A stretch of DNA of 64,000 nt from an uncultured Candidatus Saccharibacteria bacterium (GTDB taxonomy: Bacteria; Patescibacteriota; Doudnabacteria; UBA920). Positions 6,644 to 46,109 of the stretch are shown here, piece after piece. The stretch is from contig CAYSUI010000001.1 of the NCBI GenBank assembly GCA_964434195.1, positions 8,931 through 72,930 on the forward strand, read 5' to 3'. The notes under the pieces were generated by a model. That model made no database searches, was not told the origin of the DNA, and was given only the letters and a program-made list of their open reading frames with translations. A program made the translations under genes and the position numbers. Every line of letters starts with the position of its first letter. The stretch's first letter is position 1.

Positions 6644-6709
6644 ATTGCCTCCTTTGTGAATTCTGAAAGTTTTTTAAACAGAAAAACAAAGCTTGCTTGT
6701 ATTCTGAAT

Positions 6710-7267: not shown

Positions 7268-7416
7268 CTCCTTCTAAAAGAAAATATAGATGATTATATT
7301 TTCTTAGCTGGCTTTAGTCAAAATATACCTTAAGGATTATAAAGCCATTAGGAAACAAAAAAGCGTCGCAATATATAATTTACGATCGTAAAAATAGAAA
7401 ATTTTATTTTATTAAT

Positions 7417-7884
7417 TTAGTTGGTTTTTTTTGTGACCCTATAAATGTAATACAAAACCCAAAAGAGTAGAGCACCGGAAGTATTTGCTACTAGGTCCCA
7501 CCATGTGTCGTAAGAAGATAGACTAGCGAGTCCAGCCCGGGTAATAAAAAATTCAAAAATTTCGTTTGATACACCCAGCGCAGAAACTAACGCATAGGTA
7601 AAAACCAAGTCTTGGAGGGGTCTATATTTTAGCCCAAGTTGGTTTCGTATATATACCCAAACAATCCCACTAAATATTCCCCCGCCTACGAAGTGAGTCA
7701 GAAAAGCGGTCTGCATACCGTCCACCTTTGGCGAAGGTAAGTACCAGGAAACAAAATATATTAACCCTGCAAGAATTAAAGTAGTTCTTTTCACTGGAGG
7801 TTTTCCACTTAACCAGTGGGTAAGTATTGGTAGAAAAACATATACAACTACGGGCACACCTATAGATAGAATTTTTAAAATCAT
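7417..7884 (-). CDS. Small integral membrane protein (about 4 TM).
   Basis: Hydrophobic profile. Confidence 0.45.
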   Translation of the reverse strand: MILKILSIGVPVVVYVFLPILTHWLSGKPPVKRTTLILAGLIYFVSWYLPSPKVDGMQTAFLTHFVGGGIFSGIVWVYIRNQLGLKYRPLQDLVFTYALVSALGVSNEIFEFFITRAGLASLSSYDTWWDLVANTSGALLFWVLYYIYRVTKKTN

Positions 7885-7989
7885 AGACTTAGTTTAACCC
7901 CTAAACAGATACTTTACCACCCAAGTTGCAATTGCAACTGGAGTGGTAAAATTAGACTTTTTGAAAGTATATAAAAAAATGGCTGCGAA

Positions 7990-9246
7990 CTATTCACAGC
8001 CATTAACTTCCTTTCTTATGGAAGCTATAAACTCTTTATTGAACGACTCCACAAAACCCACATCGTAAAACAACTTAATTGGGATATGTAGAACTGACTG
8101 GTCTTTATCTGGCGGAAACTCAGTCTCGTTTTGTTGCAAAATTTTTGAAAGAGCTATGTACGCATGCTTGTCAGTAGAGCCTCCTAGAGTCTTATCTTTA
8201 CAATGCTCCCCTATTCCAGCACCACCCAAACAAGCATTGCAAATTGAGTCTGGTTCTGGAGTCAACACAACCACGAAGTCCGGATGGGTTTGCGAAAGTT
8301 TTAACCAATGCCAGTGAATGGCTATGTCCAACTCTACTTTCTTAAACAGACCAGGGGTTTCTTCTGGGAAAGTTTTTCCAAAAACATCTTTCAAGTAAAA
8401 CACTTGACGCCGACATTGTTGTATTTGTTTTTCGCAAATACTGCCAATATTCTGACTACCATTGGTTAGCGATTTTCGAATATCTTCCCAAAAGAAATAG
8501 ACATCTATACTCCTTTCGTCTTCCAGACTCGTACTTACTAACTCCCCGAAAATGTTTAGGAAGTCTATATACTGCTCCCAACTTGGATTCCAAAAGAATT
8601 CACTCAGGTCTTCTATCCTTAAAGCTAAATTGTTTATGCAGTCTAAGAAATCTAGGTAGGATTCACGATACACTTCTTCTACTACACCATCCCAGTCTTC
8701 GACACAACTTCTAACTTCTGACTGTTTCCTTGTTAGTAAAGATTTGAGTCCTTTAAGAATTTCCTTTGGATTATTTCCAGTTCTTAGAGCATTAGCTAAT
8801 TCCTTTTCGTCGTCTGTATAGAGAAATGCATTATTAGGATTTTTAGCATTTCTAACAGTTAGGTCCCAGATAGAGAACAGTATTAAGCATAGCCTCGAAA
8901 GCGCCACTGGGTTTTGATAGGCAGTCCTAAAACTTAACAGTAGATCTTGAGCGAGTTTTTCCGCATGACCCATATTTTTAATTTGAGCCACGGAACGTTT
9001 AAAAGTTAGAAGAATTCGCTTTTTAGAGAATTGTAAAAATAGCTCGTCGTTTGCCTTGGTAGATTCCAATTCCCGTGGGACCAAATGAATACCAGTTTTC
9101 TCATGTTTACTTATGTAAGATATTCCAAGCCAGTCGTAGCAGAAACGAGAAAATTTTTCGAAATGACGCAAACGCATAGTTTGAAAAAAACTTTTTGAAT
9201 CGGAACCAATTATTTCATTCAAGGTAAGCGACTCTAATTTACACAT
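7990..9246 (-). CDS. Hypothetical protein (418 aa) with a Cys cluster CNACLGGAGIGEHC.
   Basis: ORF track. No family recognised. Confidence 0.5.
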   Translation of the reverse strand: MCKLESLTLNEIIGSDSKSFFQTMRLRHFEKFSRFCYDWLGISYISKHEKTGIHLVPRELESTKANDELFLQFSKKRILLTFKRSVAQIKNMGHAEKLAQDLLLSFRTAYQNPVALSRLCLILFSIWDLTVRNAKNPNNAFLYTDDEKELANALRTGNNPKEILKGLKSLLTRKQSEVRSCVEDWDGVVEEVYRESYLDFLDCINNLALRIEDLSEFFWNPSWEQYIDFLNIFGELVSTSLEDERSIDVYFFWEDIRKSLTNGSQNIGSICEKQIQQCRRQVFYLKDVFGKTFPEETPGLFKKVELDIAIHWHWLKLSQTHPDFVVVLTPEPDSICNACLGGAGIGEHCKDKTLGGSTDKHAYIALSKILQQNETEFPPDKDQSVLHIPIKLFYDVGFVESFNKEFIASIRKEVNGCE

Positions 9247-10395: not shown

Positions 10396-13300
10396 CTATT
10401 GTTCGGAATATTTTAGAACGGCTCCACCATAGGCTTCGTAGTATTCTATTTTAATTTCGTGGGCGCCGGCGGTTAGGTTTTTGGTTGCTGTGTAGGTGGT
10501 ACTGCCTTGGTCTTTCCATTTGTCTATTACTAGTTCGCCGTCTATGTAGAGTCTTACGCCGTCGTCTGCGGTTACGGTGAAGGTTTTGTTTCCTGCTGGG
10601 TAGTTCTGCAGTTTAGTGAAGCGGCAAGAGAACTGGTCTACAGGCACACTTGCACTAGGACTACCCCCGTTCCAGACAAAATTAATATCTTGGTAATTGG
10701 CAATGTAAATTGGACTGCCTTGTAAGCTTGTTCCGTTATAACAGCTTGCAAAGAAACCAGCGGGACCGGTTTGTTTGTTTATGTTTAAAGCAAGTCTTGC
10801 CCAAAGAGTTCTGTCGTAAAATTCTACCTTTACTTCGTGGAGACCTGCTGACATTTGCTTGGTAGCTGTGTACGTAGTTGTACCGTGGTCGTTCCATTGG
10901 TCTAGTATTTTTTCTCCGTTTATATAGAGTCTTATACCGTCGTCAGAAATAGTTTCGAAATTATATAGACCGTCTTCGAAAAGTTTTTTTGCTTTGGCTT
11001 CCACTATAAAGAACTCTGGAGCTACTCCTGTGGCAGGTGCGTTGTTGCCCCAAGTGAAATCTATATTTGGACTTGTGGTTGTTGCGAGTGGTGGCGTAGT
11101 GGGAATTTGAGGAACGAGAGTGAAGGGTGCGTTTGGGAAGTTCCAAAATATTAGCGCGTAGTCTGTAGGAATATTTACCGGAGTTATGTCGCCTACTCTT
11201 TGGTAGTTAGCTATAAGTACTGCACCACCACTGGCTTCGTAGTATTCTACTTTTATTTCGTGTTCTCCGGTTTGCAAGTCTACTTCTCCACTGGTAGTTC
11301 TACTGCCGTGGTCGCTCCAATCGTCTACTACTTTTTTACCACCTACAAATATTCTGCAACCGTCGTCACAGGTTTGGGTAAATTTATACTTACCACTCTG
11401 TAGATTCACTTTTTTTGTAAAACGAGCGGAAAAAAAATCTGGTTGAATTTTAGGGTCTGGACTAAGAGCGTTCCAGACGAAATTTATTTCTTGGTCGTTT
11501 CTTACTAAAGCTGGTGTGCCCGTAAGATTTTTGTTGTTGAAAAATTCGGATGTAAAAGAATCTACTGGCGGTACTGTTGCGACTTTAAAGTTGGCAATGT
11601 AAGTAGTATCTGTGTTTGGTGTGGCTATAGTATGAGTCTGCGCTCCGCCGTCGCTCCAACTTTCGAATACGTAGTTTATGCCATTTAAGGTTTGATTTGG
11701 GGCTTCTAGAATTCTATTAATACCAACGACTCCAGAAAAAGTTTGTGGAGATACTTTTGGCTGACTGTCGATATTAATAATCATTCCCTCGGGATTACTC
11801 TTAACAACCAAATTACTAATTCTCGGAAAAATATCCAGTTCTTTAGTAGTAGTTAACCCAAATGAATCTTTTGCCGTAACAATTATTTTATACCAAACAT
11901 CAGGAGAAACCTCTCCTTCTGCAGGGATTACGAATGAGCCTTTTCTACCAGTGAAAGGTGCAATGAAAGGGTGAAAATGAACATTGTGATGAAATCTTAC
12001 TTCTGTAGTAAACGCAGAGTCAGGCAAAATTTTCCCGTCGCTATCCATAGCTGAAAACTCATAATTTATCGTATCACCCGCTTTATATAGAGTGCTTGGA
12101 TTTGGTGATATAAAGCTTAAGACTGGTGGATTACTTACTTTCACAACAATCGGAGAAGTACTCACAGAATTTACCCCATCGCTTACTGAAAGAGTCACAT
12201 TAAACTGACCCTTGTTTACATATAAATGTGAAGGGTTCGGTTGTGTAGAAGTTTGTCCGTCTCCAAAATTCCAACTAAAAGACAAAGGTTTGCCTTCTGG
12301 ATCAGAAGAACCGCTACTGGAAAAATTAACTGTTAGTGGTGGCTGACCTTGTAGAGTATCTGCGGAAGATTTTGCTATGGGTAACAAATTACCCGTCGAA
12401 GAAAATATCTTAACAAGACTCCCTTTAAGTAGAGACAGATAATATAAGGCTCCGTCTGGTCCCTGTTTGAGATCTATTATGCCTATTGCGTCGGTATCAA
12501 AAGGTGCTTCTGATTGAGCTTCTATTTCACCATCTTCGTGCTCGTGTAAAATTACCCTTCTAATAAAACCCAGTGTGAAATCTCCATAGTAGTAATTATT
12601 ACTGAAATCTGGAGGGAAATTACTCCCCCTGAATACGAACCCTCCCATTATTGAGCCTCCTAGACTTGAGTTAGCACTTACGTGTGCATATGCGAACAAT
12701 GGATCTGTTAGTCCAGCACAATTATTTTGACATTTACCTTCCGTTTTTGGCCAACCATAGTTTGCACCTTTCTTTACAATATTCATCTCTTCCCAGGAGA
12801 GTTCCCCCACATCCCCTAAAAACAATTCGCCACTCGATTTATCTACCTGAAAACGAAATGGATTACGAAAACCAAGCGCCCAAATTCTTGGATCTGCACC
12901 AGGGGTAGACACGTATGGATTGTCTGAAGGTACTGTTCCATCTTTATTTATTCTTAAAACCTTCCCATATAAATTGGATAGATTTTGAACACGCGATGAA
13001 ATACTTCCGTCACCAATCGCAAGATATAATTTCCCATCGTTCCCAAAATCCAAAGCACCGCCTGCGTGGAAAGGGCCTGAATCTGACTGAGAATTAAATA
13101 TGACCACAGGAGCTTGAAAATCTGTATCTCCCTGACTATTAAATCTCACCACCTTGTGAAAGCCATCGGGAGCAATATAGTAGACATACAAAAAGTGGTT
13201 ATTGTTCCAATCTGGATCAACCGCTATACCATATACACCCAAAGCGTCTGTGCCTTTTACCGCCAACTGTGCAAAAGGTGTACCTAACACATTTCCATTT

Positions 13301-14556
13301 TTTATTATTTTAATCTTGCCGAATAACTCTCCAACAAAAATTCTTCCGTCTGGTGCAAATGTAAAAGTAGTTGGCGAACTTAAACCTGAAGATATGACCG
13401 ATTGTTTCTGAAACATACCCGCTTGAACCGGAGCCAATGGACCCTTAGCTCTATATATTTTTCCTGGTGAGATCGTAACGTAATAAATATTACCATCTGG
13501 CCCTTGTACTAGGTCTGTAATTGTACTTACTCCCGAATCGAATGGAATCTCTGTTCCAATTACCCCTGTTGCTGTGTCGTTGATCTTTAGACGACTAATA
13601 CGAGCCTGCGAGAAATCTGCAAAAAAATATGAGCCGTCGTATTCAGGAGGTAGGTTATAGCTCCGACTAACAAAACCACCTACTATTGCACCAGTATTAT
13701 GACCATTGACCGTTGTGTGGGGGTATACATAAATAGGATCGATCAAGCCACCGCAATTAATAGTGCATTTACCCTCAGCTAGTGGCCAACCGTAATTCTT
13801 ACCTTTCTCTACTATATTTATTTCTTCCCATGTAGATTCTCCAACGTCTGCAAGCAATAGCGTACCTTTTACAGAATCGAACTGAAATCGGAATGGATTC
13901 CTAAAACCATATGCCCACACTCTTTGTTCTTTTCCTGCTTGTCCGAAATATGGATTGTCGCTTGGAATAGTTCCGTCTGAATTTATTCTTAGTAGTTTAC
14001 CTAGTGGTGAACTAAGGTCTTGGACTTTGAAAGTTAGACCACTGTCTCCTATTCCTATATAAAGTTTTCCGTCTGGACCAAAGTGTATTGCGCCACCAGC
14101 ATGGTTACTACCAGCAACTACACCGGACTTATAAACTTCTACCCAATTACCGGAACTTGCGTCTCCGCTTGCGTTTACTTTCCATACTTTATGGAAGCCG
14201 TCTGTTTTGTCTATGAAATAAATATATACAAAAGGACTAGTGTTCCAATTTGGATCAAAAGTTATACCCAAAGCTCCACGATCCGAATCCGCAAAAGCAG
14301 GAACACTGCCAAAAGGCGTTGCTAATAGAGTGTTGTTTTTATAAATTTTTATGCTTCCACCTTGCTCAACCACAAAGAGTCTACCGTCTGGTGTAAAACC
14401 AATTGCAGTAGGGTTGTTTAGACCAGCACCAACCAACGTGTCTGTAGTAAAACCACTTGGTGGAGCGGCTTTTGCTTGTGAACTAATAAGCAAAAAGAAA
14501 CCGAGTATGAGAGCAAAGGCTTCCAATGCTAAACGAGCTTTGAATTTCATATTCAA
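10396..14556 (-). CDS. 1386-aa secreted multidomain surface protein: signal peptide, 2x glucose/sorbosone-dehydrogenase-like beta-propeller, PKD domain, 3x PA14 domains.
   Basis: Duplicated GFRNPFRFQFD and GFRNPFRFQVD signatures. PKD-like WNFGDGQTS..HLYVNKGQFNVTLSVSDG. Three PA14-like DDGCRIFVGG, DDGIRLYINGE and DDGVRLYIDGE blocks. Confidence 0.75.
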   Translation of the reverse strand: MNMKFKARLALEAFALILGFFLLISSQAKAAPPSGFTTDTLVGAGLNNPTAIGFTPDGRLFVVEQGGSIKIYKNNTLLATPFGSVPAFADSDRGALGITFDPNWNTSPFVYIYFIDKTDGFHKVWKVNASGDASSGNWVEVYKSGVVAGSNHAGGAIHFGPDGKLYIGIGDSGLTFKVQDLSSPLGKLLRINSDGTIPSDNPYFGQAGKEQRVWAYGFRNPFRFQFDSVKGTLLLADVGESTWEEINIVEKGKNYGWPLAEGKCTINCGGLIDPIYVYPHTTVNGHNTGAIVGGFVSRSYNLPPEYDGSYFFADFSQARISRLKINDTATGVIGTEIPFDSGVSTITDLVQGPDGNIYYVTISPGKIYRAKGPLAPVQAGMFQKQSVISSGLSSPTTFTFAPDGRIFVGELFGKIKIIKNGNVLGTPFAQLAVKGTDALGVYGIAVDPDWNNNHFLYVYYIAPDGFHKVVRFNSQGDTDFQAPVVIFNSQSDSGPFHAGGALDFGNDGKLYLAIGDGSISSRVQNLSNLYGKVLRINKDGTVPSDNPYVSTPGADPRIWALGFRNPFRFQVDKSSGELFLGDVGELSWEEMNIVKKGANYGWPKTEGKCQNNCAGLTDPLFAYAHVSANSSLGGSIMGGFVFRGSNFPPDFSNNYYYGDFTLGFIRRVILHEHEDGEIEAQSEAPFDTDAIGIIDLKQGPDGALYYLSLLKGSLVKIFSSTGNLLPIAKSSADTLQGQPPLTVNFSSSGSSDPEGKPLSFSWNFGDGQTSTQPNPSHLYVNKGQFNVTLSVSDGVNSVSTSPIVVKVSNPPVLSFISPNPSTLYKAGDTINYEFSAMDSDGKILPDSAFTTEVRFHHNVHFHPFIAPFTGRKGSFVIPAEGEVSPDVWYKIIVTAKDSFGLTTTKELDIFPRISNLVVKSNPEGMIINIDSQPKVSPQTFSGVVGINRILEAPNQTLNGINYVFESWSDGGAQTHTIATPNTDTTYIANFKVATVPPVDSFTSEFFNNKNLTGTPALVRNDQEINFVWNALSPDPKIQPDFFSARFTKKVNLQSGKYKFTQTCDDGCRIFVGGKKVVDDWSDHGSRTTSGEVDLQTGEHEIKVEYYEASGGAVLIANYQRVGDITPVNIPTDYALIFWNFPNAPFTLVPQIPTTPPLATTTSPNIDFTWGNNAPATGVAPEFFIVEAKAKKLFEDGLYNFETISDDGIRLYINGEKILDQWNDHGTTTYTATKQMSAGLHEVKVEFYDRTLWARLALNINKQTGPAGFFASCYNGTSLQGSPIYIANYQDINFVWNGGSPSASVPVDQFSCRFTKLQNYPAGNKTFTVTADDGVRLYIDGELVIDKWKDQGSTTYTATKNLTAGAHEIKIEYYEAYGGAVLKYSEQ

Positions 14557-21984: not shown

Positions 21985-24900
21985 TTATGGGACTTGGGTT
22001 ACTCGGTTAATAATGTCTAAGGCGTGATCTGAGGACTTCTCCCAGTCGAAGTTCTTTGCCCAGCTTAGGGCATTTCTACCCATTACAGTTCTTTTGTCTT
22101 CGTTTTCTAAAACGTGACTTATTTTTTCTGCAAACTTGTGATGGTCGCCGTGGGGCACGAGAAAACCAGTTAGTGGGTTTTTTACGCTATCTCTTAAGCC
22201 CGCTACGTTACTTGCTACTACCGGTACACCGCAAGCATTGGCTTCTATAGTTGTTATACCCCAGCCTTCCATAAAACTTGGGTTTACAAAGACCCAGGCT
22301 TTTTGGTACCAGTCTAGTTTTTCTTCTTCGGTTATTTTTCCGGTGAATTCTATTTTTTCTAGCACACCTAAATCTTCCGCGAGTTTTTTTAATGGTAAAA
22401 ATTCTTCTCCCCCACCTGCAATTACCAGTTTTGCGTTATCTACTTTTTTTGCAACTATAGCAAAAGCTTTTACTAGCACGTCTACAGATTTATATGCTTT
22501 TAGTCTTCCTAAGTACAAAATAGTTGGGTCTTCGCTTTTGGTTCCTGGTTGGTAAATTCTCGTGTCTATACCCGGGTTTACTACTTCTATGCCTGCACCA
22601 GTAATACCAAACTTTTCCATTTCGCTTTTACTGGACTCGGAAACGGTTATAAATTTTACTTTGCTGTAGACCCTAGGCATTAACCAGTTTTCCAAGACAC
22701 TCGCAAACCAAGCGAGTGGTTTTGGTAAGTACCTATAGAAGACATCTTGGTGGACATGGTGAAGTATTGTAACTATGGGTGGTTTTGCATATAGAGGTGT
22801 AAAGAATGGAATACCGTTATGACAGTCTACTAACACGTCGAAATTTTTTCTAAACTTAAGCATGTAGTATATGAATGCCCAAAAGTAGACTGTATAAAAA
22901 CCACCGTGGCGTATAATCTGAATACCGTCTATGGTTTCTTGTTGGGTGTTTTTCCCGTCTTGTCCGCAGAATTCCGTAACACTATTCCCCTCTTTTACCC
23001 AACGCTTCATTAGTTCATGGATATATATTTCTGCACCACCGGCGAAAGCGTGTTTGGTGTCGCGCCAGTTAAAAACTAGAATACGTTTACCTAATGGCGC
23101 GGATTGGACAGGAATGTCTTTAAACAGATACTTTAGGTCTCTGAGATTGGAATATATAGAGTAAGATTCTTTTTTTACTATGTGAAGAATAGAGACAAGA
23201 ATTAGATAACTAGCACTTATATATAATTCCGCATTAATAAAATCCCAAATTGTACTATGGTCTAGGAAAAGCAAAATACAAAGTCCCAGTGTATTTGCCA
23301 AGGAAACAATAACAAACGAGTAATGTTTTCTTACTAAGTGGTAACTGTTAATAAAAGCCGCCAAAGAGAAAAGGATCGTAGCGAATATGTATGTATTTAT
23401 ATATTGCATTACTGGTAGCACCTTGGCTCCAAACAAAATTGGAAGAGTTAAACTTCCAAGAGGCCCTAAGGCAATACCAGATGCAAGCGAAAGCATTGCG
23501 GTTCCCGCAAGCAAAAGGTAAAATTTTCTGTCCGGATTTTTTCCTAAAGCTATTTCTTTACTTACGATTGGCACTATGAATGTTATAAGCAATGTTCCTA
23601 TGGTAAACACCATTCTGCCAATGAGAGAGACCATACTGTACTGCCCCGCAATGTCTGGTGATAGATAGTGTTTGGCAAGTAAGACATCCGCACTTAAAAA
23701 TGCAGCGGTAGAAATACCTGTTGCCGTAACGGCGAGATAAAAACGTTTTGGGAAATTTTTAGCAAAGGGTTCCACGGGTAGTTTTTCTGTTTTAGTTTTA
23801 CCCAGTAGATACAAACCAGAAATTAAGACCGTAGAAAGCCCAGCGGCGATTGAGAAAGGAATAGAAGCAGATACCCAGTTAGACTTACCAACAAATACAG
23901 CACCCATACCAAACATTAATTTAGCGGAGGACTCTACTAACACACTCACGGCCACAAGACCGAATTTTAACCAGCCTTGTAATAAACCTCTGTAGGCGAC
24001 TAGAACTAGGACCAAAAAGAATGTTGGAGAGAAACTATAAAATACTAAATCTGCAGGCATTCTGAAAAATCCAGCTACTACTGGAGCGAACGCCACCCAA
24101 ACTACTGTAGCCATTAGACCTACAAGTAAAAAATATTTTTGGGAATTTTTGAAAAAATGCGAAGCCCAAGAGGCTTCATATTTATTTGTTAGGAAAGTCA
24201 CTCGGTGGTTTATGGATGCGTTTAACCCCCATGCGAATACGCTAAACAAACCGAGCATTGTATTGAACGCATTTACAACTCCAAATTCTGCATAAGAAAC
24301 TTTTCTTCCCAAATATGCACTAAAAACAAAATTTAAAAAGTTTGCTACTAACATAGCTGCAATAAGAGCCCCACCACTTCCTAAAGTTTTGTACTTTTTC
24401 CAGCCGATATTTTCTTCGTCTATTGCTCCCCCACTTTCTGCTGCTAGGTGAAGACCGTGGACGGTTTTGGCCCAGTAATGGGGTTTGGTTATTACTTCCC
24501 AGACACCTTTCCAGGCGGCAATACTCATACCTAACCAGTACAAAGGAACTAGAAATGCATATTTAATAAGATCCCAATAACCGCGTTTTGCCAGACCAAT
24601 CATGTAGTAGTACAGGTACAAGAAATTTCCGAATATTAGACAGACTACGCCAGTATATAAAACAGGTGCTGGGAAAAAACTTTCTATGAATGCACCGTAC
24701 TGACTTCTGAAGGCAAAATATAAAATAGTTACTAACCACATGAAGGGGTTAATAAAGAGGCTTAGAATTTTTCCACCAATTATAAACTGAAGAGAAATAA
24801 TATGTGGCTTTTTTACCCCATGCCATAGTTGCCCTGGCCTTCTCATGTGAACTAAGTAGGTCATTATGTAGCCCTTTATCCAGCGACTTCTTTGGCGGTA

Positions 24901-26031
24901 CCAGTTAAGCGCGTTACTGTTGGCTTCCTCGTATGTAGTACTTTCTATAATTGCTGTGCGGTAACCTCGCTTGGCCATACGAAGACCTAGGTCTGCGTCT
25001 TCGGTTACGTTGAATGCGTCCCATCCGGACATTTTTTTTACGTCTTTGGTGCGAAAGTGATTACTGGTTCCACCAAGTGGAATTGGTGCGTTAAGTGTTT
25101 GCAGTCCGGTTAAAACTAGGTCGAACCAAAGACTGTACTCGGCGACAAAAAGACGAGTGAGTAAGTTTTGGTGAGGGTTGTAAAAATTTAGTTTTGCTTG
25201 TACACAGATAACTTCTTCTGGGAGTTTTTTTAGTGCGAGGTATGCTTTTTTTAATTGGTCGGGTTCTGGTTTGTCTTCGGCGTCGTAGATAACTAAAAAT
25301 TCTCCGCGGGCTTTTGTGAGCCCGTAGTTCATAGCTTTAGGTTTGGTTTTGGGTTTACTATCCGGCACAACTACAACTTCTACATAACTAGGAAGATTCA
25401 TTTCGTTTACCTTGTCTATAGTTTTGGTGTCGTCTTCTTCTAGCAATAGCATTACCTGAAGTTTTTCTTTGGGCCAGTCGAGGGCTTCCATAGCTTCTAG
25501 GAACTGAGGGACGACTTGCCATTCTTTATATAGAGGGCAGAAGATTGTGTAGGTAGGGAGGGAATGGATTCCCGACTTCTCGGGAATGACACCTATATTG
25601 TCTAGTTCTTCTTGAGTGGATAGGATTTCTGATGGTTTTAGGAAGCTGCGGAGTATTAGGAATCCGTTAAAGAGTAAGTCGGCAAAATACAAGAAAGTTA
25701 TGAGGGCGAAAAATACCACTAGGGTTATATGCCAGTTTATTAGGAAAGCAATTATTAACAGAAGACCAAACCCGAGTAGGATAATTTTTTGTTCGAATGA
25801 AAAAACAAAAAAAGCGGTCTCTTCGTAACCAAGATCTGAGTGGAAAATAAAATTCTGATTTTTATATTTTAATCCCCTACCTTTTCTGCCGAAATGAAAA
25901 GGAGTAACTGTAGTGGGTTCTTTTTTGAACGTGTAAACAAACTTCTTTGTCTTTGAAAATAAATTTTCTTTTTTCAGAGATGAAGAAACTTGTGGTTCGG
26001 TATTTAGGTTTTTGTTTTTCCAGATGTGCAT
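21985..26031 (-). CDS. 1348-aa fusion protein: N-terminal TM anchor, processive GT2 domain (DAED, QRSRW), MOP/Wzx-like multi-TM flippase block, C-terminal GT4 domain.
   Basis: YDAEDKP and QRSRWIKG motifs, about 12 central TM helices, C-terminal EGWGITTIEANACGVPVVAS. Confidence 0.7.
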   Translation of the reverse strand: MHIWKNKNLNTEPQVSSSLKKENLFSKTKKFVYTFKKEPTTVTPFHFGRKGRGLKYKNQNFIFHSDLGYEETAFFVFSFEQKIILLGFGLLLIIAFLINWHITLVVFFALITFLYFADLLFNGFLILRSFLKPSEILSTQEELDNIGVIPEKSGIHSLPTYTIFCPLYKEWQVVPQFLEAMEALDWPKEKLQVMLLLEEDDTKTIDKVNEMNLPSYVEVVVVPDSKPKTKPKAMNYGLTKARGEFLVIYDAEDKPEPDQLKKAYLALKKLPEEVICVQAKLNFYNPHQNLLTRLFVAEYSLWFDLVLTGLQTLNAPIPLGGTSNHFRTKDVKKMSGWDAFNVTEDADLGLRMAKRGYRTAIIESTTYEEANSNALNWYRQRSRWIKGYIMTYLVHMRRPGQLWHGVKKPHIISLQFIIGGKILSLFINPFMWLVTILYFAFRSQYGAFIESFFPAPVLYTGVVCLIFGNFLYLYYYMIGLAKRGYWDLIKYAFLVPLYWLGMSIAAWKGVWEVITKPHYWAKTVHGLHLAAESGGAIDEENIGWKKYKTLGSGGALIAAMLVANFLNFVFSAYLGRKVSYAEFGVVNAFNTMLGLFSVFAWGLNASINHRVTFLTNKYEASWASHFFKNSQKYFLLVGLMATVVWVAFAPVVAGFFRMPADLVFYSFSPTFFLVLVLVAYRGLLQGWLKFGLVAVSVLVESSAKLMFGMGAVFVGKSNWVSASIPFSIAAGLSTVLISGLYLLGKTKTEKLPVEPFAKNFPKRFYLAVTATGISTAAFLSADVLLAKHYLSPDIAGQYSMVSLIGRMVFTIGTLLITFIVPIVSKEIALGKNPDRKFYLLLAGTAMLSLASGIALGPLGSLTLPILFGAKVLPVMQYINTYIFATILFSLAAFINSYHLVRKHYSFVIVSLANTLGLCILLFLDHSTIWDFINAELYISASYLILVSILHIVKKESYSIYSNLRDLKYLFKDIPVQSAPLGKRILVFNWRDTKHAFAGGAEIYIHELMKRWVKEGNSVTEFCGQDGKNTQQETIDGIQIIRHGGFYTVYFWAFIYYMLKFRKNFDVLVDCHNGIPFFTPLYAKPPIVTILHHVHQDVFYRYLPKPLAWFASVLENWLMPRVYSKVKFITVSESSKSEMEKFGITGAGIEVVNPGIDTRIYQPGTKSEDPTILYLGRLKAYKSVDVLVKAFAIVAKKVDNAKLVIAGGGEEFLPLKKLAEDLGVLEKIEFTGKITEEEKLDWYQKAWVFVNPSFMEGWGITTIEANACGVPVVASNVAGLRDSVKNPLTGFLVPHGDHHKFAEKISHVLENEDKRTVMGRNALSWAKNFDWEKSSDHALDIINRVTQVP

Positions 26032-26106: not shown

Positions 26107-27144
26107 TTAGTAAGGAGACTGGGAAAGTTGGCTTAGAAGACCAATGAGAACTGCATAGTCTGCAGTATTGTTGTTTGCTAGTGCAAATTGTACCTGCATC
26201 ATAAGGTCTTTAAACATGGAATTTTGGTCTAGGGTTACTCCGTTAGAAAGAGTTACACTAGTAGTTCCCCATGTCGACCAGCAACCAAGGTTACCCCAAA
26301 GGATGTCCTGTACTGGAGCGGAACCTGCACCGCCGTTTTTATAAAGAGACATTTGCATTGCAAGATACCAACCGAGAAGCTTTCGCTGGTCGGTAGCATT
26401 AAAAGCTGTAGCTTTTTGGAGAGCAATGTTTACATGATTTGAATGACCGTTAACGTTGCTTGGAATGTTGTTTGGAATATTTACAGTTCCACCTGGACGC
26501 TTGTTTGGCCACAGTTTAAAATATAGCGCGTCGTTGAATTCGAAGGTGTGACATTTCCAGCTTAGAGATGGATCGCAACCAGCGTGTAGAGACTTAACTG
26601 CATCTAGGTCGAAAGCATCTGCAGTTGGTTCGAATGTTGCTGGGTTTGTAACGTCTGTTATTCTTACGAATTTTGCACAGGTAATGTTTGGGGAGAAGTC
26701 ATAAGAACTATCTCTTACATCTTGAACTGGTGTGGACAAGAACCAAGTAGAGCCGTCTTCGCTAGCTTCTACCATAATAGCTTCATCTTGATAGCCTGGA
26801 TTTGTGGATTCGAAAACGGTTACATCGAAACCAGCATCGTTTTTAATTCCACCGTCGAAACCAAGAACAATGCTTCCTCCAAAACCAAGACTGAAGAAAG
26901 TACCGTTTACTAAACCTGCATCGTCTGGTGTACCTGTTGTTTCGGCAGCACCTAGTGCTTGAGTAGCATCGCTTCTAATTACATCGACAGGACTACCGTC
27001 TTTTCTTAATCCTTGAGAAGCAGAGACTACTGTGTCTGCCCACGGACCAACGCCGTCTGGGGCTGCGGCGAGAGCCAAAGGAGCTACAGATGCAGAAAGT
27101 GAGGCAGCTGTAAGAGCTCCGGCGAGAATTCGCTTTAGATTCAT
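26107..27144 (-). CDS. Secreted hypothetical protein (Ala-rich signal peptide).
   Basis: N-terminal MNLKRILAGALTAASLSASVAPLALAAAPDG. Confidence 0.5.
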   Translation of the reverse strand: MNLKRILAGALTAASLSASVAPLALAAAPDGVGPWADTVVSASQGLRKDGSPVDVIRSDATQALGAAETTGTPDDAGLVNGTFFSLGFGGSIVLGFDGGIKNDAGFDVTVFESTNPGYQDEAIMVEASEDGSTWFLSTPVQDVRDSSYDFSPNITCAKFVRITDVTNPATFEPTADAFDLDAVKSLHAGCDPSLSWKCHTFEFNDALYFKLWPNKRPGGTVNIPNNIPSNVNGHSNHVNIALQKATAFNATDQRKLLGWYLAMQMSLYKNGGAGSAPVQDILWGNLGCWSTWGTTSVTLSNGVTLDQNSMFKDLMMQVQFALANNNTADYAVLIGLLSQLSQSPY

Positions 27145-27426
27145 AAACTTTTGCCTTTTGAGTTTTCGTTTTTTTAACTTAACTCTTAATTAATATTTGT
27201 TTCAAAAAATATATAATAAATAGCGCTTATGAGAGCGTTACTATCGGTAACCAGTGGGATTATTAATAATACACCCGCTACAGCACATAGGCAACTATTG
27301 CTTTTGTTTTTGAGAAATTTTGAGACTCTACGGAAACTTTCAGCGAGAGTCGGAAAGTTTACAAAATTACTAATCTTAGCTAGACTATTTTTTATTTCAA
27401 ATACTCTTTTGACCTTTAGGAGGACT

Positions 27427-28044
27427 ATGAAAAATTTTACCCAAAAGGCATACCAGCGGTATGAAATTACGAGGGGTATGAATGTGAATTTATTGGAGAT
27501 TTTAAGGAATGTTAAACGCTCCATTTCAGACGAGCCCCTAGACGCACCTTCGCTTAATATCTCTCTCGAGGACGGCGTCGTTCTAAAACCTGATTATGAA
27601 ATTTCACTGCGATATTGTCCACTAAGCAAATCGGTGGTCCCACTGTTTCTTAGTTTCAGACAACTTTCTTCTGGAACCCACTTCGAGGATATTCCTTTGA
27701 ACTTTGTTTACGACGGAAGTGAAAACGGTTCCGTAAAACAACAAAGGATTTGGTTCTCGAAAAATGGAAACGAACTGGTCTTCTTGGGAGAGGGTTCAGA
27801 TATGGGAACACACTTGAATTTGAAGTTCATAGTTCCCGCTGCTTCTGCTCTGTTTGAACAAATGAAACCAGAAGAGGCAATTCCTCAAATGATAGCGGCA
27901 GTAACTAATTCCCTAACTCTCAGAAAATTCACACCAACACCTGGCACTCATTATCTTGAACTAATTCTAAAGTGCCATAATGATTACCAGTTGGTAGGCT
28001 TTCTCGAGTGGGAAAAAGCCCAGAATTATTTATTAGCAAAATAG
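27427..28044 (+). CDS. Hypothetical protein (205 aa). Start moved to the ATG after AGGAGG.
   Basis: ttaggaggactATG, in frame with the listed ORF. Confidence 0.5.
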   Translation: MKNFTQKAYQRYEITRGMNVNLLEILRNVKRSISDEPLDAPSLNISLEDGVVLKPDYEISLRYCPLSKSVVPLFLSFRQLSSGTHFEDIPLNFVYDGSENGSVKQQRIWFSKNGNELVFLGEGSDMGTHLNLKFIVPAASALFEQMKPEEAIPQMIAAVTNSLTLRKFTPTPGTHYLELILKCHNDYQLVGFLEWEKAQNYLLAK

Positions 28045-28141
28045 ACAAAACTCTCCTTGAGAGTTTGTTTTTTTAAAACTATTTACAAGGTCTATATTTT
28101 TATGTATAGTTACTGAATATACAACTTTAGGAGGATATGAA

Positions 28142-28534
28142 ATGATTGGAAGCTCAGTTACTGCCAAAAAAATTTGTGACCTTACGGACACACATTTAAT
28201 TAGCATTAACGGGAGTCTGTTTTTTTATGGGCTTGCGTTGGAGTTAAAGAAACACGTGGACCAAATTACTGAGAATAATAATCCTAAGGTAATTCTGGAC
28301 CTAAGTGATTGCCCGATAGCCGACGCTGGCGGCTTAGGTGAAATTGTTAGGAGTTATACTAAAATCCTAAGGAATAACGGGAGCATCGTTATGGTGAATC
28401 CTGGAAAAAAAATGAGGGGGATGTTTAAACTCACCAAACTCGATATGATTTTTGAAATAACAGACGATATTGAATCCGCTGTAAACATGCTCAGCAATGG
28501 GCATAAAGCAGTCGGCAAAGCGGCTACACTCTAG
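28142..28534 (+). CDS. STAS-domain protein (SpoIIAA-like anti-sigma-factor antagonist fold).
   Basis: 130 aa with a KVILDLSDCPIADAGGLGEIV core. RBS ggaggatatgaaATG. Confidence 0.5.
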   Translation: MIGSSVTAKKICDLTDTHLISINGSLFFYGLALELKKHVDQITENNNPKVILDLSDCPIADAGGLGEIVRSYTKILRNNGSIVMVNPGKKMRGMFKLTKLDMIFEITDDIESAVNMLSNGHKAVGKAATL

Positions 28535-28683
28535 GTAACTAGGGTGTTTTTTTATTGACTTATATTTGACAATTAGACATGTTTATGGTAATGTATATAG
28601 TTTTCTCAGCTCTTGGAATATGTGCGGAAGACTTAGAGCTTTCCGCTGTTACTGACCGTTTCATAAAACTCATGGAGGACTAC

Positions 28684-29295
28684 ATGAGCGAATCAATCTT
28701 AAATCTGACCCCTGAAAGGGGTACGGCCTCAGTTTTTTGGGGAGTTATAAATGACGAGTTTTCGGGAACAAAAACCACGACCGGCGAGAGGGTTGAATTT
28801 CTGAAAATGCGTGAAGTCAGGAGACAACCTGGACTCTATGGTGCTTCTGAATTTCAAAGCACGGGAACGAATGCGGGGACTTCGGTTGAATTACTAAAAA
28901 TCCTAGGAGAAACGGTGAGTGGTTACGAAAAGACCTACGTCTGTGTGCAAGACACAGAAATAGGCTTAAGCCTGACTCTCATCCGTGTCTTCACTTCCGA
29001 GAAAGGCAGTATTGCGTTCTCGTATCGCGCATCAAACATCGAAAGTCCCAAATTTGTTTATGCTCAAAATGGGACCGAAGCGAGAATCGTTGACCGCATC
29101 GCGGCCAGTGTGAATTCTCGTGAGGAGAAATTTTGGATAGTGGGTTCTGTGCGGTGGTCACAAGTATTAGAACTCACTTCTGCGCTTTCCAATGCCGATT
29201 ACGACCTGGATTCGTTGGATGAAGATATCGATGATGCCAAATCGGCTGTTATAATAGCTATAGATAAAGCCAACGGTACCGTTGGCGATGAATAA
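28684..29295 (+). CDS. Hypothetical protein, paralog A of a tandem pair (PGLYGASEFQ .. LIRVF..AFSYRASNIESPKFVYAQNG).
   Basis: Start moved to the ATG after GGAGGA. Shares blocks with 29370..30041 by eye. Confidence 0.45.
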   Translation: MSESILNLTPERGTASVFWGVINDEFSGTKTTTGERVEFLKMREVRRQPGLYGASEFQSTGTNAGTSVELLKILGETVSGYEKTYVCVQDTEIGLSLTLIRVFTSEKGSIAFSYRASNIESPKFVYAQNGTEARIVDRIAASVNSREEKFWIVGSVRWSQVLELTSALSNADYDLDSLDEDIDDAKSAVIIAIDKANGTVGDE

Positions 29296-29369
29296 ACACA
29301 CTTGATTAGTGTGCTTTTTTTTGTTAAGTTTCAGGTTCTCTGGTTACGAAAATTTGAGGAGGAATATTT

Positions 29370-30041
29370 ATGGAAGTTGATCAGTATGACACCGATGAAC
29401 TAAAACAGCAAAGTAAACCAATTATTATTTCCAGATTCGACGAACTCTCTGGATCTAAGCGTGCGGCGATATTGTTCACCAGCTTGTTTTTTGGGACAGC
29501 ACTGGATGGAGCTCACCGCAAAGCACTTAAAAGACTGGAGTCTCGCACACCCGGACTTTATGAAGTGGCGGAATTTCAAGATAGCCCGCTTGGTACCAGT
29601 AGTCTACTTTCGGAAATTTTTACCGCAACAGAAACACCCCTGGCCACTGACTCGGTAACTTACGTTTATACTTCTGGAAGCCTTAACGTAAGGAAAACAC
29701 GACTGGTTCGTGTTTTCGTGGGACTTAGTGCGGTGATTGGTTTTGAGTATAGCGTTAGCAATCTTGAAACCCCGAGAAGAATATTTGCTCTGGACGGCCC
29801 TGAACCCAGTGGTAAAAAATTTGCCTGGACCCTAGGATTTAACTACTTTGGTTTTGAATTTGTAGGAAATATTCTTTGGTCCCAAAAAGAAGTTTTAGTT
29901 TCGAGACTTAGGGAAACAGGGAAATACTTTTTTGGCGAGGAAGAAGTGGAATGCTTCGACCTACCCAACGAGGGCTCAGCTATAAGAGACATTTTACAAG
30001 AGGTCATAAGGAAGGCTGGTGGGAATCTGTATAAAGACTAG
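29370..30041 (+). CDS. Hypothetical protein, paralog B of the tandem pair (PGLYEVAEFQ .. LVRVF..GFEYSVSNLETPRRIFALDG).
   Basis: RBS gaggaggaatatttATG. Shares blocks with the previous gene. Confidence 0.5.
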   Translation: MEVDQYDTDELKQQSKPIIISRFDELSGSKRAAILFTSLFFGTALDGAHRKALKRLESRTPGLYEVAEFQDSPLGTSSLLSEIFTATETPLATDSVTYVYTSGSLNVRKTRLVRVFVGLSAVIGFEYSVSNLETPRRIFALDGPEPSGKKFAWTLGFNYFGFEFVGNILWSQKEVLVSRLRETGKYFFGEEEVECFDLPNEGSAIRDILQEVIRKAGGNLYKD

Positions 30042-30133
30042 ACCGCATTAAGTATGCGGGTTTTTTATTGACAAAAACTCGCGGGGAATATAAAGTTAGT
30101 AATTCTCTGCTATTTTTTTTGGAGGTAAAAACT

Positions 30134-30772
30134 ATGGAGGAAACATTTAACGATTCAATTTCGCTGGGTGAGAAGATTTCTTACTTTCTCACTACTGAGT
30201 ACGGTGTTAATACTCTTATAGTATACTTAGCCATCTCTATCCCTTTCGTTTATTTTTTTGGAGAAAAATGGCATAACTGGGACAAACGAAACAGGGGTTA
30301 CTGGGGTTGCCAAAGGGCTCTAAAAGTCCGATCTATAACCATGCTAGTTTTAGCAGGGCTCGTGACATTCCTGGCTGGCGCTACACCCTATATTGAACGT
30401 TCTCTAATTCTCTTGGGCGTAGCGATTAATTTTGTTCTACTCGCTGTTTTCAACTTTCTCCTATCTCGGGAATTAAAAAGGAAGACCCCAGAAAGCGCAA
30501 AGAATGACTTAAGGTCTATTGCGGAAGAGCTTATGCATAATGTAATTTCCATGGGTGGCAGAGGTCGCAGCGTAAGCGCGATTTCTGAAGTTGAAGATTC
30601 TGCTCCACCTTTAATTGCCTATGAACTGCTTGAAGAAAGACGAAGACAGAGAGAGGCTCAAAAACAAAGGAATGAGGAACTTTACCTAAGTGGAGAAGCA
30701 GGTTTTCCTACACCCACCACACCTCAGGGTAGAGGTATTTTGGAAGATCTTAACCCGACCGATCAACAGTAG
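30134..30772 (+). CDS. Membrane protein (3 TM) with a charged coiled-coil C-terminus.
   Basis: Start moved to the ATG after GGAGG (30134). Followed by a hairpin plus T5 terminator at 30771..30793. Confidence 0.5.
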   Translation: MEETFNDSISLGEKISYFLTTEYGVNTLIVYLAISIPFVYFFGEKWHNWDKRNRGYWGCQRALKVRSITMLVLAGLVTFLAGATPYIERSLILLGVAINFVLLAVFNFLLSRELKRKTPESAKNDLRSIAEELMHNVISMGGRGRSVSAISEVEDSAPPLIAYELLEERRRQREAQKQRNEELYLSGEAGFPTPTTPQGRGILEDLNPTDQQ

Positions 30773-30832
30773 CTCGCATATGCGAGTTTTTATTTTTACC
30801 ATTACTCCTTGCGGTCGCGTAGGATTATAGTT

Positions 30833-34276: not shown

Positions 34277-34349
34277 GTGATTTTTGTTAGTACATTTAGT
34301 TTAGCGTAATTTCTTTGGAAACAAAAAAGCCTCCTAAATTTAGGAGATA

Positions 34350-34877
34350 TTAACAGACTTCAGCAAGAGTGTAACCACCTTGGGATGAAGGTACAATAAT
34401 ATGGAATTCGTCATCCTGATACAACAATGCTTTTGCCAATTCAACCGTACTGGAAATCATTTGTGGGGTACCATAGTAGACGGCCTGGAATGGGTCGTAC
34501 CCCACCCTTACCACACCAACAGTCCCCTCTGCTTCACCTAATATGAGAGCAAGAAGAGGCGTGTTCTTCTGGTAGTGAAAAGCCTCTAGCAGATAGCGAT
34601 TGCTCGAGGAGAATGTCCCGGCATCCTGATACCTACGAAGTACGGTATAAAAGACCTGGCCAGGTTTCCAGGTTGTCACAGAACGATCCCCGAATAACTT
34701 ATCGAAGAGTGCCACAATGCACTCTTCAAGATACTCTTCACCTGTAAACAGGTCTTCCGATAAAGCCCGGAGACTACTCTTCTTCCCGGGATCGAATATT
34801 ACTTGCATGGTTTTCTCCTTGAAAAAAGTAAGTTCTGAAATAAGTTGTATTATAATATAAATTAATAATTTTGTCAA
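34350..34877 (-). CDS. Hypothetical protein (175 aa).
   Basis: ORF track. Confidence 0.45.
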   Translation of the reverse strand: MTKLLIYIIIQLISELTFFKEKTMQVIFDPGKKSSLRALSEDLFTGEEYLEECIVALFDKLFGDRSVTTWKPGQVFYTVLRRYQDAGTFSSSNRYLLEAFHYQKNTPLLALILGEAEGTVGVVRVGYDPFQAVYYGTPQMISSTVELAKALLYQDDEFHIIVPSSQGGYTLAEVC

Positions 34878-36869: not shown

Positions 36870-36980
36870 TCTCTCAACTTTACTCCGTTCTACGCTTGCA
36901 TACCTAGTATGCAAGCAAGTAATTTGGGAGTTTATTAAATTATTACAGTAAAGACATAGTAACAGTAGGTTAGTAACAAG

Positions 36981-37008
36981 TAAAAAAAATAACCTCTCTA
37001 GAGAGGTT
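36981..37008 (-). terminator. Intrinsic terminator: perfect 18-nt palindrome AACCTCTCTAGAGAGGTT followed by a U8 run on the minus strand.
   Basis: Read directly. Downstream of gene 37014..37535. Confidence 0.55.
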
Positions 37009-37013
37009 TGCTA

Positions 37014-37535
37014 TTAATCTTCATCTTCATCTTCATCTTCATCTTCATCGTCTTCATCGAAGATTACGAATAGAACTTTTTTCGAAGTCGTTTCAAGGTA
37101 TGTTGGCGTTTTTTCGTTGTAGAGGAGAACTTTTAATTCTCCCAACATGGAATCGAAATTCCCAACATCTTCCCTTGCCAAGTATAAAAAAATAAAATTT
37201 ATAGTAACTTCAATGACCTTTTTTAACCCATCGTAATCCACGGTGAAGAGCTCGATATCATCACCTTCTTTTGAACCGTATGTACCAACAGTAAGCTGTC
37301 TTGTTGGACCAATCGGTAAAAGCTCGTACCATATTTCGTCATCTCCGAATGACTCTGATCTTATCCTCGACGACTCTTCGGAGAAATCGCGCTCCACTTG
37401 TTTTAAGAACCCGGATAACCCAGGAAGAGACTCTGGTAATTCTTTGGCGAGTTTTTTTAGATCTAACATATTAACCCTCGTTTGTTGTGTTTGGAGACAA
37501 TAAAATACTTTACCCGAATTAACATTGCTGGTCAA
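37014..37535 (-). CDS. Hypothetical protein with a C-terminal poly-acidic DEDDEDEDEDEDED tail encoded by a (TCTTCA)n microsatellite.
   Basis: Translation and the direct nucleotide repeat at 37017-37058. Confidence 0.45.
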   Translation of the reverse strand: MTSNVNSGKVFYCLQTQQTRVNMLDLKKLAKELPESLPGLSGFLKQVERDFSEESSRIRSESFGDDEIWYELLPIGPTRQLTVGTYGSKEGDDIELFTVDYDGLKKVIEVTINFIFLYLAREDVGNFDSMLGELKVLLYNEKTPTYLETTSKKVLFVIFDEDDEDEDEDEDED

Positions 37536-44788: not shown

Positions 44789-45493
44789 CTAGAGACCAGA
44801 ACTTAATTCCACCTGCTGATAAGCTTCCATTTTTTCTAAAATTGCTTTTTTCAACATTTCTGCATCTGCTTTTTTAAGCCCAGGAATATTAACCTTGTTT
44901 CTACTTGCACCTACAGAGTCGCCGTGCTGATTATAACCTGATGTAAGTCGAAAACTTCTCGTGTCTTCTCCCCCGCTCACACCTGCATTCTCGACAGTGA
45001 GGGAAGCGAGACCTGCGAGCCGATCAAAGAAATCTTGTTTAACATTCACATGCTGAATAACCCCATAAGGGAAGTTGCGCTGTTTTTTTGAAATAACGCC
45101 CTGATGTACGATGAAAAATTCTGGCTCGAGAGAATAATGAAAATTTTTGCGAATAAGTGGGTTGGCTATTAAGTAAATAGGCAACGCAATGAGTAAATAG
45201 ACATTTATACCACCAAAAAGAACCAATAGTAAAAACTGGATGATAATGATAATAATTGGCGCTTTAAATACCCAAAGGGTTGTTATAGGGTAGTTTTTTT
45301 CGGTGATACTTGCACCCGCAATACTGGGTTGCAGAAGACTCGCCTTATTTGGAGAGGTTTGGATTGCACTAAAAACTTCATCTACTAAAGTAGCCTGCCA
45401 ACCTGCCTGCAGAACTTGGTTCTTTATTGACTCCAAAGGTACACCTTTACTAAGTTCACCTTGTACGTAGTTTTGCAAATCTTGATTTACCAT
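44789..45493 (-). CDS. Membrane protein with a bacterial PH (bPH_2/YdbS-like) domain.
   Basis: TM hairpin plus NFPYGVIQHVNVKQDFFDRLAGLASL. Confidence 0.5.
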   Translation of the reverse strand: MVNQDLQNYVQGELSKGVPLESIKNQVLQAGWQATLVDEVFSAIQTSPNKASLLQPSIAGASITEKNYPITTLWVFKAPIIIIIIQFLLLVLFGGINVYLLIALPIYLIANPLIRKNFHYSLEPEFFIVHQGVISKKQRNFPYGVIQHVNVKQDFFDRLAGLASLTVENAGVSGGEDTRSFRLTSGYNQHGDSVGASRNKVNIPGLKKADAEMLKKAILEKMEAYQQVELSSGL

Positions 45494-45494: not shown

Positions 45495-46109
45495 TTATTG
45501 TATTGGCGTAACTGGTGGGGGTGGTGGTACTGGCACTGGTGGAGGAGGTGGCGTACTCGCGAAACCTGAGTGCTGGGATTGAATATTCCTAACTCTATTT
45601 ATTTTTTCACTAACAGTCTGCAGAAGAAGACCTCTAAGACCGTCGGCTGCTGGCTTTTCTACTCCATCGATATGAGCTTGCATACCTGACGAAATGGTGG
45701 CACTTGAAATATGAACGTCGTAGATACCTAAAATTCTATCGAGTAGATCCTGGTCGACATAAACATCTTGAATACGCTCGTAAGGCATAGTAATTTCTTG
45801 AGGGGTAATTGGGCCTTTTTTTATTACTACATAATTAGCGTCTAGCTCATAGTAATAAGTGGCAAAATACCAACGTTGGTAGAAATATACCGAAAAGAAT
45901 AAAATCGCAGATAGTAAACCAAAAATCACAGTATCCACCACTACTATTGTCATTGTGCTAGTCTCTGATCCAAAGGCTGAAAGAAAGACGAGGGCCCAAA
46001 TTACAAAGAAAGCTACTAAGGGTACTAACGTTCCTCGAATGGTCTTTTTCCAAATTTTTTTATGACTCAGAGGATACATCTCTCTGGTCTTACTCATGGC
46101 TATTTTCAT
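45495..46109 (-). CDS. Membrane protein with a bPH_2/YdbS-like domain, tandem paralog of the downstream gene, with a Pro-rich tail.
   Basis: ITMPYERIQDVYVDQDLLDRILGIYDVHIS. Confidence 0.5.
   Translation of the reverse strand: MKIAMSKTREMYPLSHKKIWKKTIRGTLVPLVAFFVIWALVFLSAFGSETSTMTIVVVDTVIFGLLSAILFFSVYFYQRWYFATYYYELDANYVVIKKGPITPQEITMPYERIQDVYVDQDLLDRILGIYDVHISSATISSGMQAHIDGVEKPAADGLRGLLLQTVSEKINRVRNIQSQHSGFASTPPPPPVPVPPPPPVTPIQ

Follow-up and report, generated by a model that had tools for sequence, protein, structure and literature searches.

Within a 64-kb stretch of DNA from an uncultured member of the Patescibacteria (the candidate phyla radiation, CPR), whose nearest sampled relatives are Candidatus Doudnabacteria genomes, we examined five consecutive plus-strand genes, designated g1 to g5 (contig CAYSUI010000001.1; the whole 64,000-nt stretch is called the window, and all coordinates are its own unless stated). 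CPR genomes are small and their owners depend on hosts; roughly half of the genes in them lack an assigned function, and orphan gene clusters are common. Nearly all genes around g1-g5 lie on the minus strand, and both the gene calls and the strands agree with an earlier note on this DNA, which had singled out five plus-strand genes in a minus-strand region. The five genes stand between a RelA/SpoT-Fpg-p339-groES-groEL block on one side and a cell-surface polysaccharide (glycosyltransferase) cluster on the other, and constitute a lineage-restricted accessory island, in which the STAS protein g2 has lost its phospho-acceptor serine and the g3 slot has been swapped between sister species.

Gene content and coding evidence

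The first gene of the island, g1 (27427-28044, plus strand, as are all five), encodes a soluble 205-aa protein of no family, of which codons ~164-205 are divergent and probably recombinant. It is followed by g2 (28142-28534), encoding a 130-aa single-domain STAS protein of the SpoIIAA type with Ala62 at the phospho-acceptor position, and by g3 (28684-29295; 203 aa, soluble and acidic) and g4 (29370-30041; 223 aa, soluble), two members of one orphan family, of which g3 occupies a variable slot and g4 is conserved. The last gene, g5 (30134-30772), encodes a 212-aa membrane protein with three transmembrane (TM) segments. Longer open reading frames (ORFs), of 271 aa for g1 and of 238 aa for g3 (open from 28579), were rejected because the Shine-Dalgarno (SD) sites stand in front of the shorter starts. 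The additional part of g1 is poorly conserved and carries an indel relative to a sister genome (L004, described below), and that of g3, where GGAGG precedes 28684, overlaps the gene's own promoter.

Exact-sequence look-up yielded two lineages, namely the window type (several Logan runs and one NCBI contig) and the L004/L073 type (JGI 3300006899, SRR12487045, DRR235452/3). L004, a sister species, holds all five island genes in the same order, and its DNA is 87.5% identical to that of the window over about 17 kb (89-91% in individual blastn segments). Compared with their L004 orthologs, g1 (88% amino acid identity), g2 (91.5%), g4 (88%) and g5 (80%) gave ratios of nonsynonymous to synonymous substitution rates (dN/dS) of 0.25, 0.16, 0.09 and 0.30, respectively, and these low values establish g1-g5 as genuine coding genes under purifying selection. 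They are nonetheless much less constrained than groEL, whose product is 99.6% identical between the two lineages, with a dN/dS of 0.009.

The products of g1 to g4 are acidic to neutral and, because they have no hydrophobic segments, were taken to be cytoplasmic. In g5 the TM segments span residues 27-45, 68-86 and 91-112, and the positive-inside rule predicts an N-out/C-in topology with a charged cytoplasmic tail of ~100 aa; the earlier note had described a 3-TM protein with a coiled-coil tail. The basic cytoplasmic loop at residues 47-67 is invariant relative to L004 (dN = 0). The TM region of both g5 orthologs weakly resembles the N-terminal TM region of exopolysaccharide (EPS) polyprenyl glycosylphosphotransferases (E = 1e-3 and 5e-3), a lead only. 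Assignment of g5 to that family was rejected, the TIGR03025 match reaching 18.2 bits against a cut-off of 295, with the TM region alone aligned and no Bac_transf match; PspM (NF047839) was rejected likewise, at 16.1 bits against a cut-off of 80 and again in the TM region only.

Signals for translation and transcription

All five ATG codons of the island have GGAGG 3-8 nt upstream. Of the 57 mechanically called starts in the window, 11 have GGAGG within 20 nt, comprising all 5 in the island and 6 of the 52 outside it, in keeping with the strong ribosome-binding site that the earlier note had ascribed to each gene; when other in-frame starts are allowed, the GGAGG genes outside the island rise to about 9-10. 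Most genes of the window are without GGAGG, and a second consecutive run of full GGAGG sites occurs at 4616-9246, over genes for a 100-aa protein, a Peptidase_M48 protein and proteins of 124, 183 and 418 aa.

A terminator scan of the window returned 19 terminator-like sites against an expected 5.8 ± 2.2. Within the island each gene is followed by its own plus-strand terminator, as had been claimed, each consisting of a short G+C hairpin and a T-run, with folding energies of -7 to -12.5 kcal/mol. That of g1 (28048-28075, hairpin 28048-28066) has an 8-bp stem and a T-run (-8.2 kcal/mol), and that of g2 (28526-28554, hairpin 28526-28547) a 9-bp stem that lies over the stop codon, followed by a T-run (-12.5 kcal/mol, z = -4.3; conserved in L004). 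The g3 terminator (29297-29322, hairpin 29297-29313; -7.0 kcal/mol) is kept despite the replaced coding sequence, and those of g4 (30043-30066, hairpin 30043-30059; -9.1 kcal/mol) and g5 (30771-30798, hairpin 30771-30788; -9.3 kcal/mol) complete the set. All five are retained in the sister genome, and the g1 and groEL terminators each show one compensatory stem change between the two lineages.

Promoter-like sites on the plus strand were found upstream of g1 (27358-27386; TTTACA, 17 nt, TAGACT), g2 (28082-28110; TTTACA, 17 nt, TATAGT) and g5 (30068-30096; TTGACA, 17 nt, TAAAGT). On alignment to L004, the -35 and -10 hexamers of these three sites are conserved and the spacers vary; at g1 the intergenic DNA has diverged together with the spacer. 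The plus-strand g3 promoter region (28568-28601) retains its TTGACA -35 box in L004, with divergence beginning just downstream of the box and -10 candidates that differ by lineage. The promoter scan found no match in the 47-nt stretch that separates the g3 terminator from g4 and is conserved in L004, so g4 may depend on read-through or on a weak promoter. The description of the genes as individually promoted therefore fails for g4, which has no recognizable promoter, and the TTGAC(A/T) box said to follow most terminators stands only in part: it is exact after terminators 2 and 4, takes the form TTTACA after terminator 1, and is missing after terminator 3. By these predicted signals, the island comprises five units, each monocistronic or nearly so, whose SD sites are unusually strong.

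The STAS protein g2

The assignment of g2 to the STAS family is well above the Pfam cut-off (PF01740, 45.3 bits versus 22.6, E = 8.1e-12, profile positions 12-106 of 106), and its nearest solved relatives are the SpoIIAA-like TM1442 (PDB 1sbo), TM1081 and SpoIIAA itself. Like the single-domain SpoIIAA/RsbV proteins, g2 belongs to the size class of ~110-130 aa, and its loop aligns with their D-x-x-G-L-G motif. Unlike them, and unlike SypA, it has an alanine in place of the phospho-acceptor serine: D61-A62-G-G-L-G of g2 aligns with D-S-A-G-L-G of TM1442, and the L004 ortholog carries the same alanine. In addition, g2 does not reach the NCBIfam cut-offs that define anti-sigma antagonists (TIGR00377, ant_ant_sig, 38.3 versus 53.45 bits; TIGR02886, 36.1 versus 114.75 bits), and its ortholog has similar sub-cut-off scores. 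The alanine argues that g2 would not be under the control of a partner-switching kinase, and this loss of the phospho-acceptor serine had been missed by the earlier note.

That note had also described g2 as a STAS protein with no partner kinase or anti-sigma gene. Consistent with this, the Pfam annotations of the genes examined in the 64-kb window include no HATPase-type kinase (the SpoIIAB/RsbW type), no PP2C phosphatase and no sigma factor. A metagenome scan with g2 returned a sole match, an unrelated high-GC locus with PP2C and STAS genes that shares a 7-mer with g2 by chance. This locus (4128-6205 of the metagenome contig L069) pairs the gene for a canonical FHA-GAF-PP2C phosphatase with a downstream STAS gene whose serine is intact, in contrast to g2.

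The g3/g4 family

The tandem g3 and g4 proteins, proposed earlier to be paralogs, are indeed true paralogs, with 33% identity over 125 aa (E = 2e-12). None of g1, g3, g4 and g5 matched above cut-off in Pfam, NCBIfam, PADLOC or PHROGs, and a search of the PDB with sequence profiles was empty for g3/g4 and gave only noise for g1, which hhalign found to be unrelated to g3/g4. Word-indexed searches of 5.8 billion clusters with g3/g4 retrieved, besides the queries themselves, a single ortholog at 88% identity. A HMMER profile of the family, run against all 1.84 billion representatives (1.84e9), recovered the g4 ortholog, g3 and the sister g3 allele (P0002, P0005 and P0006) together with two artefacts; the latter (P0007 and P0008), weak hits to proteins with internal repeats, were dismissed as false positives. 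Scanning all six-frame ORFs of the window with hidden Markov models (HMMs) revealed no further paralogs. The known range of the family is thus this organism plus a single sister species, i.e., one genus, and the earlier statement that the paralogs belong to no recognized family holds across these searches, none of which turned up the housekeeping family whose appearance would have spoken against it.

AlphaFold2 gave no usable structure for g4 (three sequences; predicted local distance difference test score, pLDDT, 42.1) or for g1 alone (pLDDT 47.8), because these proteins have too few homologs, and Foldseek comparison of the predicted g1 and g4 models with the PDB returned noise (TM-scores <0.25, probabilities <0.2). 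With structure prediction having failed, the function of the island could only be inferred.

An exchanged cassette at g3 and a mosaic end of g1

Nucleotide homology between the two lineages disappears at only one place, a plus-strand cassette at 28588-29288: blastn homology to the sister genome ends at 28587 and resumes at 29288, i.e., the cassette runs from just past the g3 -35 box to the last two g3 codons. Inside it, identity in 150-bp windows drops to 0.41-0.58, compared with a median of 0.91. The two occupants of the g3 slot share 27.7% amino acid identity, and each is 27-33% identical to g4; both g3 alleles and g4 therefore represent three deep lineages within the family. The L004 allele has a GC content of 0.513 and a GC content at third codon positions (GC3) of 0.567, against a background of 0.349 ± 0.057 for GC3 among window genes, and the window's own g3 scores lowest among the island genes for codon adaptation, near the window minimum. 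This pattern identifies the g3 slot as an allelic replacement, in which a distant, high-GC member of the same family was brought in from an unsampled gene pool through the conserved promoter and terminator flanks, rather than as in-situ divergence. As g3 was swapped for a member of its own family and not deleted, the slot is maintained. That g3 is such a swapped cassette had escaped the earlier note. An 18-bp perfect palindrome, GCCAACGGTACCGTTGGC, lies at 29269-29286 in the last g3 codons, 2 nt from the right edge of the cassette, and resembles a terminator hairpin on the minus strand.

A second irregularity concerns the 3' end of g1, where the synonymous rate (dS) rises from 0.155 in codons 18-163 to 1.27 in codons 164-205, with dN/dS still about 0.2-0.3. 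The segment looks like imported sequence rather than the product of positive selection, and the raised dS points towards recombination and away from targeted mutagenesis. A role for the g1 C-terminus as the target of a diversity-generating retroelement was considered and rejected, there being no second copy of 27880-28050 in the window and no reverse transcriptase among the annotated genes. We also considered whether the 5' part of g1 and g2 are unusually similar between the two genomes, and found their identity to be within the normal range for the pair.

In GC content and codon usage, g1, g2, g4 and g5 differ from host genes by no more than about one standard deviation, so the island taken as a unit did not arrive recently from a foreign source. 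The comparison with host composition that the earlier note had proposed thus speaks against recent acquisition and leaves the g3 slot as the only compositionally odd part.

Distribution among relatives

A GroEL-anchored scan of 185,579 species genomes yielded 54 loci, mostly from Doudnabacteria-like organisms, the closest of which belong to Candidatus Doudnabacteria and Patescibacteria metagenome-assembled genomes (MAGs), with at most 81% GroEL identity. In about 40 of the 54, all in Doudnabacteria-like MAGs (among loci L007-L057), the order RelA/SpoT-Fpg-p339 (a 339-aa protein)-groES-groEL is conserved, and it breaks exactly after groEL, at its 3' end (30884 in the window). Within 10 kb downstream of groEL, no homolog of g1-g5, of the 345-aa neighbour of the island or of the glycosyltransferase cluster was found in any of the 54 loci. 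The island thus marks a break in synteny and, in the available data, is specific to one genus. Co-conservation of the five genes, on which the earlier note had staked its proposal, holds insofar as the only related genome that has the set, L004, has all of it, but it does not extend to any of the 54 groEL neighbourhoods and is limited to one genus. Moreover, the synteny of two ~88%-identical genomes does not prove functional linkage.

Searches of viral sequence were negative as well: pattern scans of IMG/VR with g1, g3/g4 and g5 found no match, and tblastn against 50,697 phage genomes found no relatives of the island genes. In four relatives checked, RNA genes occur downstream of groEL, a tRNA in three and an S-adenosylmethionine (SAM) riboswitch in two. 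Elsewhere in the neighbourhood, the sister genome has extra ~150-aa genes (L004 12947-13628 and 16095-16674, against 34327-34432 and 36899-37020 in the window) beside similar-sized genes, possibly as tandem duplicates, which implies that gain and loss of small genes are common here.

Possible functions of the island

The interpretation that we tentatively favour is that g1-g5 form a lineage-specific, envelope-associated module that works through a STAS adaptor independent of any kinase and may govern the polysaccharide machinery next to it. In such a module, g2 would be held permanently in the "unphosphorylated" state and be constitutively competent for binding, with its activity set by its own transcription. 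It would dock at the membrane on a partner other than a sigma factor, the likeliest candidates being the invariant basic loop or the tail of g5, and the soluble g1, g3 and g4, and the likeliest output would be control of neighbouring envelope or polysaccharide functions; g3 and the 3' end of g1 would then be the variable, specificity-determining parts.

Precedent for STAS proteins acting in this way comes from Vibrio fischeri, where unphosphorylated SypA and the constitutively active SypA-S56A are the active forms and promote the Syp polysaccharide biofilm via an unknown non-sigma target (PMC10120452), and from cyanobacteria, where STAS domains reportedly regulate EPS glycosyltransferases directly (bioRxiv 10.64898/2026.04.08.717354). 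If the favoured interpretation is right, g2 would be a natural equivalent of SypA-S56A. The likeness to SypA and to the cyanobacterial STAS-glycosyltransferase proteins (All4160, XssP) would lie in a STAS protein with a non-sigma target in exopolysaccharide control, whose unphosphorylated or S-to-A form is active; g2 itself lies ~2 kb from a large polysaccharide cluster. Unlike in those systems, no SypE-, HenR- or Alr3423-type kinase or phosphatase accompanies g2, and g2 is not part of a glycosyltransferase fusion and does not share an operon with such an enzyme. The suggested link is one of proximity and analogy only.

Several observations weigh against an envelope module. The sole link among the five genes is their adjacency in two genomes that are syntenic throughout, and the separate terminator of each gene gives no reason to assume co-transcription. 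The gene for g2 lies on the opposite strand to the polysaccharide cluster, with two genes between them, an arrangement seen in one genus only, and none of the relatives' loci examined has a STAS gene beside groEL or beside a glycosyltransferase cluster. The EPS_sugtrans match of g5 amounts to 16-18 bits against a cut-off of 295 and involves TM helices only, where composition-driven matches are common. Structure prediction (pLDDT 42 and 48) gave no structure and fold searches gave noise. Finally, the negative result for kinases and phosphatases covers the 64-kb window, and such genes could be encoded elsewhere in the genome.

It is possible, if somewhat doubtful, that the genes have nothing to do with one another, being lineage-specific orphans gathered at a recombination-prone breakpoint downstream of groEL, each of them independent and the STAS gene a degenerate leftover of a lost partner-switching module. 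The terminator of every gene and the separate promoter of most would be expected on this account, as would the end of synteny with relatives exactly at the groEL 3' end, the small-gene insertions and deletions nearby between the sister genomes, the several signs of recombination mosaicism, and the general richness of CPR genomes in hypothetical genes; the lost phospho-site of g2, which has no visible partner, would suit a relic. However, g2 is conserved (dN/dS 0.16), unlike a decaying relic, the g3 slot was refilled by the same family and so maintained, and all five genes share the strong GGAGG, a minority trait among the other window genes that hints at a common expression regime. The uniformly strong SD sites, unlike those of most host genes, together with packaging of the genes with their own promoters and terminators and their absence at the same position in all relatives, could also mark the remnant of a mobile element or prophage integrated beside groEL, and prophage morons are indeed similarly autonomous, each with its promoter, strong SD and terminator. 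We consider this very improbable, since neither an integrase or tRNA nor repeats or phage genes turned up, no prophage context surrounds the island, PHROGs, IMG/VR and tblastn were all negative, four of the five genes have host-like GC and codon usage, and the island has been stable under purifying selection in two species-level lineages.

A locus of biological conflict, made up of immunity proteins, effectors or a defence against phages or competitors, is likewise unlikely, if less so than a mobile remnant. Here g3 and g4 would act as polymorphic, horizontally exchanged proteins, either immunity-like or specificity-determining, with g5 as an effector or anchor in the membrane and the STAS protein as a sensor or adaptor. 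Such a role would suit the tandem, deeply divergent intracellular paralogs of an extremely narrow and fast-evolving family, the complete turnover of one slot between the sister species through an allele of foreign composition, the mosaicism at the g1 3' end, and the moron-like packaging with a strong SD for each gene; the 3-TM N-out/C-in arrangement of g5 is the topology of class I holins. The orphan immunity arrays of polymorphic toxin systems offer a parallel in their small, tandem, divergent intracellular proteins and in allele replacement between close relatives. Against this, there are no matches to PADLOC defence models, PHROGs or Pfam toxin or immunity families, the surroundings contain no gene for a toxin, nuclease or integrase and no phage gene, and scans of IMG/VR and of phage genomes found no relatives; g1, g3 and g4 matched neither Pfam nor PADLOC, the neighbours are groEL and polysaccharide genes, and the family is confined to a single genus, unlike in toxin-immunity systems. 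In addition, dN/dS is below 1 wherever measurable, including in the variable patch of g1, g4 is strongly conserved (dN/dS 0.09), and g5 is twice the typical length of a holin and has no accompanying lysin. A combined version, in which a CPR-specific recognition or conflict module pairs the kinase-independent STAS adaptor with the membrane protein and exchanges its specificity subunits (the g3 cassette, from an unsampled higher-GC pool, and the g1 C-terminal segment) by homologous-flank recombination, we regard as quite unlikely. Were it true, g3/g4 would represent a new fold or family used by these episymbionts in their dealings with hosts, phages or competitors.

Lineage-specific sets such as g1-g5 presumably encode CPR biology. 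A natural Ser-to-Ala STAS protein with no kinase could reveal the workings of STAS adaptors that do not take part in partner switching, the g3/g4 family, among about 15 billion predicted proteins, occurs in one genus only, and the cleanly bounded cassette swap between sister species exemplifies recombination-driven diversification in very small genomes. As it stands, the locus settles no long-standing question, its function being read from anatomy and analogy only.

Neighbouring features

The divergent neighbour of the island, a minus-strand gene at 26107-27144, encodes a 345-aa protein of no family with a signal-peptide-like N-terminus. It is 93% identical to its L004 counterpart (dN/dS 0.06), and a pattern scan of the 185,579 species genomes and inspection of the 54 groEL loci found no further homolog. 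Beyond it lies the ~16-kb polysaccharide cluster, with GT2, GT4, flippase-fusion and pyruvyl-transferase genes at ~10.4-26 kb of the window, its edge 2 kb from g2. Two minus-strand genes of the cluster (10396-14556 and 21985-26031) encode giant fusions of 1386 and 1348 aa that join GT2, a Polysacc_synt flippase-like domain and GT4; the fusion adjoining the island differs in length by lineage (1348/1364/1386 aa). Farther along the window, two tandem minus-strand bPH_2 (bacterial PH domain) genes (44789-45493 and 45495-46109) lie between the genes for histidyl-tRNA synthetase and a ComEC-like competence protein.

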